Shown here: one piece after another, positions 16,908 to 63,313 of the stretch
Layout: each line of letters opens with the position of its first letter
Numbering within the stretch: position 1 is the first letter of the stretch
IMG/VR virus record: IMGVR_UViG_3300021514_000002
Coordinates: 1-64,000 of that record
Source of the DNA: a virus
Taxonomy: Duplodnaviria > Caudoviricetes
DNA length: 64,000 nucleotides
Strand: one strand, 5' to 3'
Notes under the pieces: generated by a model
The model's database searches: none
What the model saw: the letters and a program-made list of their open reading frames with translations, nothing else
What the model was told of the DNA's origin: nothing
Program-made: the position numbers and the translations under genes

Positions 16908-16990
16908 TGGTACGCCCGGTGGGAGTCGAACCCACAAAAGTCTACGGTCTAAACGTAGTAGCTGTGCCAATTTACATTAACCACAGGCGC
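16908..16990 (-). tRNA. tRNA-Leu(TAG), short variable region, enlarged D region
   Basis: CTACG-TTTAGAC-CGTAG, CCA. Confidence 0.8.
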
Positions 16991-57810: not shown

Positions 57811-58626
57811 TTAACCCTTTTTAATACAATTGTCAATATCTATTAATTGACTTAATAAATCTTCCATCATTGTCAATGGTAACATATTTGGGCCATCACT
57901 TAAAGCTTTTTCTGGATTAGGGTGTGTTTCTATGAATAATCCAGATATTCCAACTGCAACTGCCGCTCTTGCTAAAGTAGGAACGAATTCACTTTGTCCG
58001 CCAGATGTCGTACCATTACCACCGGGCATTTGAACAGAATGTGTAGCATCAAATACGACAGGACAATGTGTTTGTTCATGCATTATAACAAGTGACCGCA
58101 TATCAGAAACAAGAGTATTGTAACCAAAAGACGTGCCGCGTTCACAAACCATAAGTTGTTCGTTGCCTGTCTTTTCCGCTTTGACCACAACATTTACCAT
58201 ATCTGCTGGTGCCATAAATTGTGCTTTTTTAATATTAACCGGCTTGCCAGCGGCTGCAACCCTTTGAATGAAGTTTGTTTGTCTACATAAAAAAGCTGGT
58301 GTTTGTAATACATCAACAACATCTGCAACTTCATCTATTGGTGTGTCTTCATGTACATCGGTTAATACGGGTATGCCTAATTCGTCTTTTACCTTTTGTA
58401 AGATACGCAACCCTTCTTCTATTCCAGGCCCACGATAACTAACAATGGAAGTACGATTCGCTTTATCAAAAGAAGATTTGAAGATAAAAGGAATTCCTAA
58501 TCTATCCGTAACCTTCTTTAAATATTCGGCTGATTCTAAAACAATCTTTTCACTTTCAATAACACATGGACCAGCAATCAAAAAAAGCGGGCGATTAAGT
58601 CCTACTTCAAAGTTACATAATTTCAT
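57811..58626 (-). CDS. kdsA: 3-deoxy-8-phosphooctulonate (KDO8P) synthase
   Basis: [48 protein letters not shown]. Confidence 0.95.
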
Positions 58627-58915
58627 GGTTTTTTCCCTCATGTAAAAATTTTATCAATGCACTTCTGGCTGCAGCAACGAGATATCCAAACACATTATCG
58701 TTTTTCGTTGGATCGAATGTTCGGTAACTTATCATTATTTGCATTATCGCTTGCTGTTTCATGTCTTCATTGTATGTAAGCCTTTTAAAGTGGGGAGGAT
58801 TTATTAATCGTTCCGCAATACAAACAAACATCCCTGCCAGTGCTTCCGTAATTCTTCCATTTTGTTTAGATTTTTCAATTTCAACAAGAAGATCGGCATT
58901 TATAACTTTAGTCAT
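58613..58915 (-). CDS. Short T4 gp55 (late sigma)-like paralog
   Basis: IT..LA.MF..IAERL...F...TY.EDM...A.......FDP.K..N.FGY. Confidence 0.6.
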
Positions 58916-59285: not shown

Positions 59286-59360
59286 TGGTGGAGCTAGTTG
59301 GAGTCAAACCAACGACCTCTACATTGCAAGTGTAGCGCTCTATCACTGAGCTACAGCCCC
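59286..59360 (-). tRNA. tRNA-Ala(TGC)
   Basis: G3:U70, CTACA-CTTGCAA-TGTAG, CCA; T loop TTTGACT. Confidence 0.9.
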
Positions 59361-59413
59361 AATACTTATTTATTCGTGCAAATGAACAGTAGTATCATCT
59401 TTTAAATATACCA

Positions 59414-59653
59414 TCATAAATTATCGCGCAATTTTTTTAATATCATAAATGCAGCAATATCATCATCGGTTGCTTTACGAAATATTCTATATTCTTGACA
59501 TTCAGGAAAATCAACCACAATATTACCATCTTTTATGTATCCAAATTCAGGCAAGTCAAATATTTCACAAAATTTTGTTAAAACAATTTCACTTATAAGA
59601 ATATCATCAATTTCAACTTCAATTTTTTTTGTATGTTTCGCGTTTACTTTCAT
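59414..59653 (-). CDS. Hypothetical protein
   Basis: Intact ORF. Confidence 0.6.
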   Translation of the reverse strand: MKVNAKHTKKIEVEIDDILISEIVLTKFCEIFDLPEFGYIKDGNIVVDFPECQEYRIFRKATDDDIAAFMILKKLRDNL

Positions 59654-59662
59654 TTCATTACC

Positions 59663-59914
59663 TTAGTCTGTAAGAATGTGTTTTAGTGTTTGGGCATATT
59701 CTTGTGATTCGTTATCTGTTAAATTAAATTCAGCGTTTATTTCTTGAATGATTATAGATATGATTTCATCTGTTGCATCAAGTTCTGGATGATAGCTATT
59801 AAGTTCCGTAATAATTTCTGGTCGCCATTTTGCGACCGCGATTTTACCATCAACAGAAATAGTGACACCACCATTATCTTCAATTTTAACATTAAATGTT
59901 CTACTCATCGTCAT
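59663..59914 (-). CDS. Hypothetical protein
   Basis: Intact ORF. Confidence 0.6.
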   Translation of the reverse strand: MTMSRTFNVKIEDNGGVTISVDGKIAVAKWRPEIITELNSYHPELDATDEIISIIIQEINAEFNLTDNESQEYAQTLKHILTD

Positions 59915-60065
59915 CCGACTCCTGTTCTAACGCTTCTTCCAAACACAGTTTACATAAGTCAGTATATTTTTCGCTTAATATAACTTTGGGTCTAGCGAGG
60001 TATTCAAGCTTGCAACTAGGACAAGCTTGATATACCATTTCAGTTGTTTTAGTATTCATAGTACT

Positions 60066-60094
60066 ATCGTACCATTTTATCCTTTAATTGTCAA
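60066..60094 (-). promoter_or_regulatory. sigma70-like promoter
   Basis: TTGACA-N17-TACGAT. Confidence 0.55.
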
Positions 60095-60097
60095 TAA

Positions 60098-60781
60098 TTA
60101 TTCCCATAATCTATCCATGTTACCACGAAAAACCTGCTTTAGGTTGGTCTTCTGACCAGTCATATGATCAATGATTATATCTTCCTGAAAACGATAAGTT
60201 CTAATCTTATCCCCGCGCATTCCCGAACCTACCATATCATGTCTTTCGGTATTTTGGTTGGCGTGCCGCTCGCCAAATATCAAAGAATCCAACATTTTAT
60301 CTACAGCTGCACGTGCTTCTATCTTATTCTTACTCTGACTTCGGCTATCCCGTTCTTGTTTGATTCCTGTAGGTAGATGAATGCATTTTATAGCAGATAA
60401 CGTCTTATTTTTCTTTTGGCCACCACAGCCCGTGGACTTAAATAGTTCAAAGAAATAATGATGATCTTCCCGTAAGGAATATTTGGAATGTGCAGAATAT
60501 TCGTCATCAAGCACAGCTACTGTAACAGTAGACGTATGAACTCTGCCTTTTCGTTCAGTCGGAGGCACTCGTTGGATACGATGCCCACCTGCTTCATTTT
60601 TTAATTTGTTTAGATTTTTTCCGATAACTTCAAGGGATATGAAACCATCGCGCTCAGATAAGCGGCTAGACTTTCAGCCTAGTTTAGAAAAGGTTTTTTC
60701 GTAAGCAACACAAAGATTGTTCACGAATAATTTTGAGTCTTGGCCACCTTCAGCGGCACGTATTTCTATAATTTTTTTCAT
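60098..60781 (-). CDS. prfA: RF1-like class I release factor lacking domain 1, with in-frame TGA at codon 36
   Basis: IEIRAAEGG, EAGGHRIQRVPPTE..GRVHTSTVTVAV (PxT), GGQ, IRTYRF; TGA at 60674-60676. Confidence 0.85.
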
Positions 60782-61041
60782 TTTATTTTTCCTTTTTGTA
60801 CTTATCGACTAGATGTTTAATAGCTAAGTAAGATGTTAGATCTATTTCTAATATCTTACTTATTTTAGGGTTTCTTTCTGTTTTTAATAACTCTTTAAAT
60901 AATTTAATCTTTTGATTAATTTCAAAAATAGTTACACTTCACCAGAAGTTATACCGCAACTAGAACCACCTAACTCCAGTACAATATTGCCTGTTTTTAT
61001 TTCTATATGTTTCATTCCATTTCTCCTTATTCTAGTATTTA

Positions 61042-61350
61042 TTAATAGAATACTTTCAATATTAAATCGCCCATGTCGGCATCCTTCAACATTTCACCCT
61101 TTACATGATATATAGTATTGTCTGTTTCAACGATACCATTTTCTTCATCATAAGCTATAACCAAAGACGAACGCATGTGCCAACCTATTTGGAATCTGCC
61201 AGTAGGATCTTCAACAACATTACCAGATAAAATCATAGCTTTGTCAACTTTAACATCCGGTCGTTTTTCTTTAAGCATCTCTATTGGAACCGACAATATA
61301 TTAAATGTCCAGTTTTCTATAGTTCCACCATCTTTTTTATCGTTGTTCAT
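61042..61350 (-). CDS. Hypothetical protein
   Basis: ATGA-coupled ORF. Confidence 0.7.
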   Translation of the reverse strand: MNNDKKDGGTIENWTFNILSVPIEMLKEKRPDVKVDKAMILSGNVVEDPTGRFQIGWHMRSSLVIAYDEENGIVETDNTIYHVKGEMLKDADMGDLILKVFY

Positions 61351-61598
61351 TCAATCACCTCTATAAAACAAGGCGTGCCTTCGCCAACCCATGCTCCTAT
61401 TTGATTAAACTCGTAATATTCGACCGCTTCTTCATATGTCATACCTTCGGCTATCAACGATTCAAATATTTTAGTTACATCGTATGCGACTATTGGCTCT
61501 TGTCCAAATCTTTGACAAATTCCAATAATACAATCATCAAATCCATCCATTAACATAATTTCTGGATATAGATCTGCTATTTGTTCTGCTTTAGTCAT
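61347..61598 (-). CDS. Hypothetical protein
   Basis: DGFDDCIIG, EEAVEYYEFN..GAWVGE.TP. Confidence 0.75.
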   Translation of the reverse strand: MTKAEQIADLYPEIMLMDGFDDCIIGICQRFGQEPIVAYDVTKIFESLIAEGMTYEEAVEYYEFNQIGAWVGEGTPCFIEVIE

Positions 61599-61786: not shown

Positions 61787-62071
61787 TTAATCAATTACCG
61801 CAACAATATCTTCTTCGCGCATAACCAACAGCTCTTCACCGTCAACTTTGATTTCTGTGCCCGCGAACTTGCCAAACATGACTTTGTCGCCAACCTTCAC
61901 ATCTAAAGCACGAACGCCGTTATCTGTAATCTGGCCATTACCCACAGCAATAATTTCACCTTGTGCTGGTTTTTCAGTTGCTGAATCTGGAATGACGATG
62001 CCACCCGCTGATGTTGTTTCTTCTTCCATACGACGAACGACCACACGGTCATGTAAAGGACGGATCTTCAT
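61787..62071 (-). CDS. groES: Co-chaperonin GroES
   Basis: [38 protein letters not shown]. Confidence 0.95.
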
Positions 62072-62132: not shown

Positions 62133-62411
62133 TTAATCTTCTTTTATAATTGGTCCTAAAGTAACACCAGTAGGACAATCGTCTTCTTTAGAATCTCGAA
62201 AATCCTTATAACTGTTTCCACAGAAGGAACAACGGTCATATAGTTCTATGCCACTACAATTACCACCATAATATTTTTGCTGTTTGTCTTCTGATAAAGT
62301 ATTAAAATAATCATTAAAACGTTTAACTTCTGCTTCGGCATGTTCTCTCGTCACACCAAAGTGAACCCAACCACATTTATTACATGTACGTTCGTTATAA
62401 TCAATTTCCAT
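62133..62411 (-). CDS. Zinc-binding hypothetical protein
   Basis: CNKC, CSFC, CP.GVT..PII. Confidence 0.7.
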   Translation of the reverse strand: MEIDYNERTCNKCGWVHFGVTREHAEAEVKRFNDYFNTLSEDKQQKYYGGNCSGIELYDRCSFCGNSYKDFRDSKEDDCPTGVTLGPIIKED

Positions 62412-63313
62412 TATATTTGAATCCCATGTTCACTAGTTCTGCTGTAATTTTCCAAGTCTTCCAACGCGGCGACAATTTTCTGACAATCGGCAGCGTAAAA
62501 ACCAGCAGAATTGATATTATTAATTTCAATAACTTTCATTCCAAGTGCAGTAACAGCAACATCCATAACAAACGCGTCTGCTGGAACACGCGTATCAGGA
62601 ATAATTTTACAATCTACCTTAGATTGCCATTCACCTATCATACGTTCACAGAACGCGTATACTTGTGGTTCAACATATTCATCTGATATTACTTGACTAC
62701 CACGTTTATATAAGCTTCCTGTTATAATGTTACCATCAACAATAAACATTCTGTATTCTGTTATAATATTTTTTGCACTAGAAATCATTATTTCTGTGTT
62801 TTTATGCAACAGGAGAAATTCATCAATCTCTTCAATTTTACTAATATCTTTTAACCATTCGTGTAATGCATCAATACTCATCACTTCACCCGAAAACGAT
62901 TTGTTATCATGAACAGGTCTTACAAATACATAATCATATGGTGGTATAGTTATATTTTTAATCAACCCAACACTTGCATCGCCATTTAAAATATTGTCTT
63001 TACCAAATCCATCACGCCATTTAGAAAAATCAAAATTTTCATTTAAATACGTACCCGGTGTCCATCCACGGGCTTTGGCTATACGTGTTAACGTTGTCGC
63101 ACCCATGACCATAATTTTCTGGTTAGTATCAATGAAAGGTTCTTCGACATCATCCACTTCTTGTGTCATGGAATCAAAGTCTGCTGGAACAAATTGATTA
63201 GTGAAAGGAATTGGTTTTATAACCAAATAATCAACTTGAAGTCGTTCTAAAGCTTCAATGAATCTAACGTAACCTGCTTCGTTGTATAAATCATTTTGTA
63301 CTACCCAAAACAT
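62411..63313 (-). CDS. ATP-grasp domain protein (DUF4343-like)
   Basis: FVRP..D.KSF.G, EYR.FIVDG, DVA, EINNINSAG.Y. Confidence 0.8.
   Translation of the reverse strand: MFWVVQNDLYNEAGYVRFIEALERLQVDYLVIKPIPFTNQFVPADFDSMTQEVDDVEEPFIDTNQKIMVMGATTLTRIAKARGWTPGTYLNENFDFSKWRDGFGKDNILNGDASVGLIKNITIPPYDYVFVRPVHDNKSFSGEVMSIDALHEWLKDISKIEEIDEFLLLHKNTEIMISSAKNIITEYRMFIVDGNIITGSLYKRGSQVISDEYVEPQVYAFCERMIGEWQSKVDCKIIPDTRVPADAFVMDVAVTALGMKVIEINNINSAGFYAADCQKIVAALEDLENYSRTSEHGIQI

Follow-up and report, generated by a model that had tools for sequence, protein, structure and literature searches.

An in-frame UGA conserved at a tryptophan position of a short RF1-type release factor gene in large phages: a likely programmed gate, interchangeable with the prfB-type frameshift site

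In bacteria, the gene of release factor RF2, prfB, is controlled by an autoregulatory +1 programmed frameshift, for which a Shine-Dalgarno (SD)-like element and the sequence CUU UGA C are used (Craigen and Caskey 1986; surveyed in PMC12421855). At this sequence termination competes with slippage, which makes it responsive to RF2. Read-through of UGA by tRNA-Trp is known from phage Q-beta, where it gives rise to the coat-extension protein A1. Bacteria generally read zero-frame UGA as Trp at a low rate, and more so when RF2 is impaired (PMC7918605); in the account of Karow 1998 given in that article, UGA read-through in prfB mutants of B. subtilis rose from 6% to 19-54%. A survey from 2025, covering over 12,000 genomes, described programmed frameshifting for prfB, not for prfA, and no conserved recoding of RF1 genes (PMC12421855). 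Likewise, no recoding was reported for the RF1 family or for prfH, which encodes a class-I release factor homologue lacking domain 1 (Baranov et al. 2006, PMC1586002). Among viruses, the class-I release factor of Mimivirus and Megavirus is encoded by a gene whose internal stops are passed by both frameshift and read-through (Jeudy et al. 2012, PMC3521657), and Jade phages, which carry a tRNA(UCA) and a TrpRS, recode TGA genome-wide, with an RF1 gene described as written in the standard code (Borges et al., bioRxiv 10.1101/2021.08.26.457843). A published account of recoding in an RF1-type or a phage short release factor was not found in a literature search outside subscription journals.

The gene described here lies in the first 64 kb (hereafter the window) of a 363,531-bp virus record (GC 36%), that of a giant phage from a deep-sea vent. 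Like prfB, it is a class-I release factor gene with an early in-frame UGA which must be bypassed for the protein to be formed, and its relatives bear CTT TGA C itself, half of them together with an SD-like element. In contrast to prfB, the gene of the window needs read-through instead of a shift and has no SD-like stimulator; its product is of the RF1 type without domain 1, the gate is located in domain 2 and not in domain 1, and the gate codon is presumably read by RF2, so that control would be exerted in trans. The need for recoding at an internal stop of a virus-encoded termination factor is shared with Mimivirus and Megavirus, but their factor is of the eRF1/aRF1 type, belongs to eukaryotic viruses and is unrelated in sequence. 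Read-through in Q-beta A1 extends the C-terminus of a complete protein, whereas the stop at codon 36 is situated within the fold, and thus no product other than that of read-through can function. Zero-frame decoding of UGA as Trp at a low and RF2-responsive rate would be common to this gene, to Q-beta A1 and to the leaky UGA of enterobacteria and B. subtilis (PMC7918605). The Jade phages resemble the phage of the window in encoding an RF1 alongside a suppressor tRNA, whereas the latter retains TGA as a stop codon.

Translation of the minus strand yielded a single frame, 227 codons long and closed by TAA (Table 1), in agreement with the frame of 228 codons and a single stop at codon 36 that the initial annotation had described; the motifs quoted there, RVPPTE and GCGGQ, are present in this frame. 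The TGA ('tca' on the plus strand) is the sole internal in-frame stop. Its context is GGC TGA A, and downstream of it reading stays in frame 0. The list of open reading frames contains only the 3' portion (60098-60568, 156 aa, GTG start), as had been stated before. A scan of positions 59300-61400 for promoters and terminators gave nothing above shuffled sequences. The neighbouring genes, all on the minus strand, encode a DAHP/KDO8P-synthase-family protein (57811-58641), a Cpn10 co-chaperonin (61787-62071) and an R2K ATP-grasp protein (62411-63313). Related phage contigs share this synteny of the release factor gene with R2K and DUF6957, to which PTH2 is often added.

Table 1. Positions of the release factor gene and its parts in the window
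Feature	Position	Strand	Evidence
Short RF1-type release factor, whole gene with one internal TGA (start ATG 60781-60779, stop TAA 60100-60098)	60098-60781	-	Translation, Pfam, NCBIfam, AF2 model
Codons 1-35, 5' of the gate: first strand and helix of release factor domain 2, including the AEGG-x-D tip	60677-60781	-	Same frame; dN/dS
Gate: in-frame TGA, codon 36, where RF1 has a conserved Trp	60674-60676	-	Conservation, alignment, independent run
Codons 37-227 and TAA: rest of domain 2 (Q, PPT and HTST decoding residues), GGQ domain 3, domain 4	60098-60673	-	Translation, alignment
SD-like AAGGA (AGGA 60790-60793), 8 nt 5' of the ATG	60790-60794	-	Sequence, consensus only

The encoded protein matched the Pfam families PCRF (last 93 of 194 positions) and RF-1. 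RF1 was the top NCBIfam model (185.8 bits, model positions 106-334 of 347), with scores below the RF1 equivalog cutoffs (185.8 bits vs 400 and 178.5 vs 423; NF001859 and TIGR00019); RF2 (101.6 bits) and PrfH (48.1 bits) were both below their cutoffs as well. Domain 1, comprising about 105 residues, is absent and the sequence begins at domain 2; the relatives are all of similar size (219-238 aa). Since RF1 ranks first and the match starts at model position 106, the protein is, judged from its sequence, an RF1-derived class-I release factor without domain 1. RF1 was also the best match in alignments to proteins of solved structure. The segment HRIQRVPPTE...HTST aligned with HRVQRVP(A/V)TE...HTS of RF1, with the Gln, PxT and His-Thr retained, and the GGQ motif of domain 3 (GCGGQKKNKT) aligned with the GGQ of RF1. 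Ribosome-bound RF1 provided the top Foldseek matches (TMq 0.88, rmsd 2.8) of the AF2 model (pLDDT 89.6), and RF2 ranked lower. From these RF1-type residues and the fold, release at UAA and UAG is predicted for the factor. PPT occurs in almost all family members, and the decoding residues showed no covariation with the gate codon; one phage copy (L086, on an IMG/VR contig of 28.7 kb) has SPT in place of PPT. In a tree, the short factors formed a clade of their own apart from canonical RF1 (SH-aLRT 100).

Absence of domain 1 is a feature in common with PrfH, also named RFH (PMC1586002). Unlike PrfH, the protein of the window keeps the PxT of RF1, and its 48.1 bits, against a cutoff of 166.65 for TIGR03072, derive from the GGQ domain only. 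No RtcB gene is adjacent to it; the upstream neighbours are DUF6957 and Cpn10.

Conservation of the gate was examined at the nucleotide level, as the initial annotation had suggested. A scan with the family alignment detected 322 viral-contig loci, and the gate codon was read in the best 80 of these 322. The column of codon 36 contained TGA in 81 of 81 distinct phage nucleotide sequences, whose proteins were 45-86% identical to that of the window, and each of the 80 fetched viral loci possessed exactly one in-frame stop, namely a TGA at the gate codon. Synonymous sites are saturated over this set (pS ~0.79), so that retention of the TGA in all sequences is far beyond chance. For close pairs, dN/dS was 0.10 in codons 1-35 and 0.17 downstream (pooled pN 0.24 vs 0.31); purifying selection thus acts on both sides of the TGA. 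Furthermore, a vent metagenome obtained in 2018 by another study contained a contig identical over positions 60604-60754, the TGA included, and two further sequencing runs (X3 and X4) had just short, diverged pieces of the locus; none of the runs listed as containing it was an RNA run. Hence TGA, and not the TGG that would have pointed to an error or a private nonsense mutation, was found both in the homologues and in an independent sample. The gate codon aligned with the Trp of solved RF1 chains (ARRWRVEI in E. coli, NQGWKFEV in S. mutans), which bears out the earlier assignment of a Trp position. Assembly error, private mutation and decay are excluded as the source of the TGA.

Public annotation treats these genes in a different manner. 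A protein search yielded 120 close family members, 30 of them short calls of 137-190 aa and the others seemingly intact with a Trp. When the DNA of ten shortened calls was inspected, TGA was present at the aligned codon in nine, and the tenth (L012) was frame-shifted. Two of the 'intact' proteins, from seven contigs, matched the database sequence only if TGA was translated as Trp; they are table 4 calls on short contigs. The Variovorax copy in RefSeq is split into a hypothetical protein of 56 aa and a "release factor-like protein". Such split or truncated entries would be expected from a broken or misassembled gene, or from one with two products, i.e. a 35-residue peptide and a restarted C-terminal fragment. 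This explanation is extremely unlikely in view of the single stop at this codon in 81/81 sequences, the purifying selection on both flanks and the same sequence in the independent sample. In addition, no in-frame restart codon is conserved 3' of the TGA, and the first start lies more than 30 codons downstream in 46/81 genes.

The gate is not confined to phages. In a scan of a genome collection, in which the gate was read in the best 80 of 336 loci, the same TGA occurred in eight contigs, mostly labelled Alphaproteobacteria and several of them from cultured isolates, as well as in a Bosea plasmid; cultured carriers include Pararhizobium, Thalassospira and Jiella. In more remote short factors, encoded on plasmids of Cupriavidus and Variovorax as well as on further contigs, the zero-frame TGA is shifted by 11-15 codons in the 3' direction. 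Cultured carriers or relatives also include Variovorax and Thiobacillus denitrificans. Megablast of the locus against a phage collection returned no close named relative, and blastn of the Cupriavidus copy against plasmids gave no match. Two rare relatives without a gate, P0028 (on a 181-kb contig) and P0054, possess Ala or His in place of the Trp, and a myxobacterial form has Tyr; Trp is therefore not indispensable at this site. A short release factor gene with two zero-frame TGAs, the first at the Trp position and the second 13 codons further on, was detected on a 170-kb contig binned as Methanobacterium (L132, GC 35%), which probably stems from a phage and not from an archaeon. Among cellular copies of the short factor, the nearest ones are alphaproteobacterial. 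A permuted two-piece tmRNA of the alphaproteobacterial type is encoded outside the window (genome ~233886-234244, minus strand) and gives a hint of an alphaproteobacterial host.

The question of whether TGA is a sense codon in this phage was addressed with the complete record. The 511 predicted genes use TAA as the stop codon in 361 cases, TGA in 104 and TAG in 46 (71%, 20% and 9%), and long ORFs of table 11 cover both the window and the genome; a genome-wide recoding of TGA was therefore rejected. Ten other same-frame junctions were flanked by coding signal on either side, six at TAG and four at TGA. Those examined, the six at TAG and two of the four at TGA, mostly proved to be neighbouring genes, each with a start codon; near the TAG junction at 284318 there is no start. 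Since 104 of the 511 genes terminate at TGA and the junctions examined are for the most part neighbouring genes, the phage uses TGA as a functional stop, and codon 36 is the single exception. The region 280000-320000 of the genome, outside the window, contains 33 predicted genes, mostly on the plus strand, with 32 TAA, one TAG and no TGA stops.

The genome encodes 46 tRNAs or tmRNAs, none with the anticodon UCA and two with CUA. The absence of TCA and CTA suppressor tRNAs from the window, stated in the initial annotation, was confirmed; the two tRNA(CUA) genes are located elsewhere (252271-252344, with 58.9 bits in Rfam, and 252952-253023, with 67.9 bits). One of them, that of 67.9 bits, is embedded in a GOLLD RNA (199 bits; genome 252630-253088, minus strand, outside the window); the second (252271-252344) has an encoded CCA end and lies about 600 nt from the embedded one. 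When the tRNA arrays were compared with those of five complete relatives among phages (350-364 kb), tRNA(UCA) was present in 0/5, tRNA(CUA) in 4/5 and a tRNA-Trp(CCA), of ordinary structure, in 4/5. A tRNA(CUA) suppressor hence accompanies the gene in 5/6 complete genomes examined. A UGA-reading tRNA, one of the sources of read-through proposed before, is unlikely because tRNA(UCA) is absent here and in the arrays of the five relatives. The only tRNA-Trp(CCA) of the phage (5682-5768, minus strand) comprises 87 nt and has a long class II-like variable arm, in comparison to 74-76 nt in four related phages. Its pair C11-G24, read from the ARAGORN drawing, is one which we take to differ from that of the Hirsh UGA suppressor. 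An extra tRNA detected with Rfam (16911-16990, minus strand, 36.2 bits), missing from the ARAGORN list, has an oversized D region; it was rejected as a UGA reader, since the anticodon read from the loop is UAG (Leu).

Efficient decoding of the TGA as sense, be it by code table 4 or 25, a suppressor tRNA or the selenocysteine machinery, might be suggested by the table 4 gene calls on short contigs and by the unusual tRNA-Trp(CCA) with its long variable arm. Nevertheless, it is very unlikely and already largely refuted: about 20% of the phage genes end in TGA, no tRNA(UCA) was found in the phage or in its five relatives, and the same TGA occurs in isolates of Rhizobiales and Burkholderiales that use the standard code. 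All other Trp codons in the 81 genes, 1-3 per gene, are TGG, and RNAalifold revealed no conserved hairpin 3' of the TGA in these genes, as the SECIS element of bacterial selenoproteins would require.

At least 18 relatives, including a close one from a phage (L012), carry in the same region a +1 cassette of the prfB type in place of the read-through TGA; at 18 loci these cassettes were CTT TGA C (13), CTT TGA G (2), CTT TAG C (2) and CTT TAA C (1). The cassette ends the first 35-45 codons, and the remainder with PPT and GGQ follows in the +1 frame. GGGGG- or GGAGG-like elements resembling an SD sequence precede the cassette at nine of the 18 loci, and in five cases the spacing is 3 nt, as in prfB. 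In a maximum-likelihood tree rooted with canonical RF1, the frameshift gene L012 grouped with the gene of the window in a clade of 12 rows (SH-aLRT 99), and the read-through genes L131 and L143 were sisters (98) of the frameshift genes L145, L146 and L152, the stop codon of both groups occupying an identical position. At least five changes of the frameshift label are required on well-supported branches. According to this tree, read-through and frameshift devices have replaced each other repeatedly, and the early stop codon is what persists. The gate is thus real, site-specific, conserved and interchangeable with the prfB-type frameshift site.

The nucleotides next to the gate are biased. Directly 3' of the TGA, A predominates (67 of the 81 genes) over C and G (7 each), and U does not occur; a pyrimidine directly precedes the TGA in 79/81, the preceding codon being mostly GGC or GGT. 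RNAalifold predicted no conserved RNA structure around the TGA in the 81 genes, and an SD-like element 5' of the read-through TGA was present in 0/81. Because neither is found beside the TGA, the efficiency of read-through may be low. The lack of a stimulatory element would also be consistent with a leaky stop that just limits a potentially harmful factor at a fixed level and senses nothing, and excess release factors do lower the fitness of B. subtilis (PMC12421855). Such a fixed attenuation is quite unlikely: a weak ribosome-binding site would suffice for it, and an invariant TGA over saturated synonymous divergence, together with the repeated exchange with an RF2-responsive frameshift cassette, speaks for a device that responds.

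We consider it likely that a programmed UGA gate at codon 36 controls the synthesis of the RF1-type factor without domain 1. Termination by the host RF2 at this codon would release only a peptide of 35 residues, and read-through, most likely by the near-cognate tRNA-Trp(CCA), would lead to the full factor of 227 residues, probably with Trp inserted at codon 36. The output would rise when termination by RF2 at UGA is slow relative to decoding by tRNA-Trp. Formation of the full-length factor only upon read-through, and therefore a role as stop-codon sensor, had been proposed before; the conservation of the gate and its exchange with CTT TGA C are strongly in favour of this proposal, and the sensing itself is what we infer. 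As the two devices interchange at one site, both appear to make production of the factor depend on weak termination at UGA, presumably by sensing RF2. The gate would then follow the UGA logic of prfB, but in trans and on an RF1-type product. Two of the frameshift relatives are gated by UAG and one by UAA, which argues against such sensing, and the rationale for tying an RF1-type factor to RF2 activity is not obvious. The factor might add termination capacity at UAA and UAG, and when RF2 is limiting it could take over UAA, at which 71% of the genes of this phage end. At UAG it would compete with the two amber-suppressor tRNAs of the phage, and it may in this way close amber read-through.

prfB itself suggests another possibility, namely that the factor reads UGA, as an RF2-like or omnipotent release factor, and cuts short its own translation at codon 36 once it has become abundant. 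The design of the gene copies that of prfB, whose product reads its own gate codon; UGA serves as gate codon in every read-through form and in 15/18 frameshift forms, and L086 has SPT instead of PPT. A Ser in first place of the tripeptide would, according to the tripeptide rule, also admit UGA. The same rule for bacterial release factors, reportedly from Ito and colleagues in 2000, allows no G at the second codon base if Pro is in first place, as it is in PPT. Autoregulation by the factor is unlikely, because the Gln, PxT and His-Thr are of the RF1 type in nearly all members. Moreover, the decoding residues are identical between UGA-gated and UAG-gated genes, which favours sensing of RF2 over self-recognition.

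More tentatively, and with low confidence, the gate may be regarded as one arm of a phage circuit over the meaning of stop codons, and the short gated RF1-type factors as a hitherto undescribed, widespread class of RF2-responsive back-up factors. Read-through of the UGA would in that case signal that host RF2 is scarce or that phage tRNA-Trp has accumulated, and competition between the factor and tRNA(CUA) would time the read-through of UAG-gated phage genes.

For forty years, prfB was the single bacterial release factor gene known to be controlled by recoding; an RF1-derived family with a like gate, which is found across hundreds of large phages as well as in certain bacteria and plasmids, can now be placed beside it. 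This family uses two interchangeable forms of the gate, UGA read-through or a +1 shift. Its genes are split, truncated or mis-coded by annotation pipelines (fragments of 156-190 aa, table 4 products), so that the family is largely hidden in databases. The relatives without a gate, P0028 and P0054, would be natural controls for its function. Should the gate respond to RF2 activity, the gated genes would report naturally on termination capacity, with the factor as a candidate back-up terminator that is carried together with phage tRNAs, tmRNA and suppressor tRNAs.
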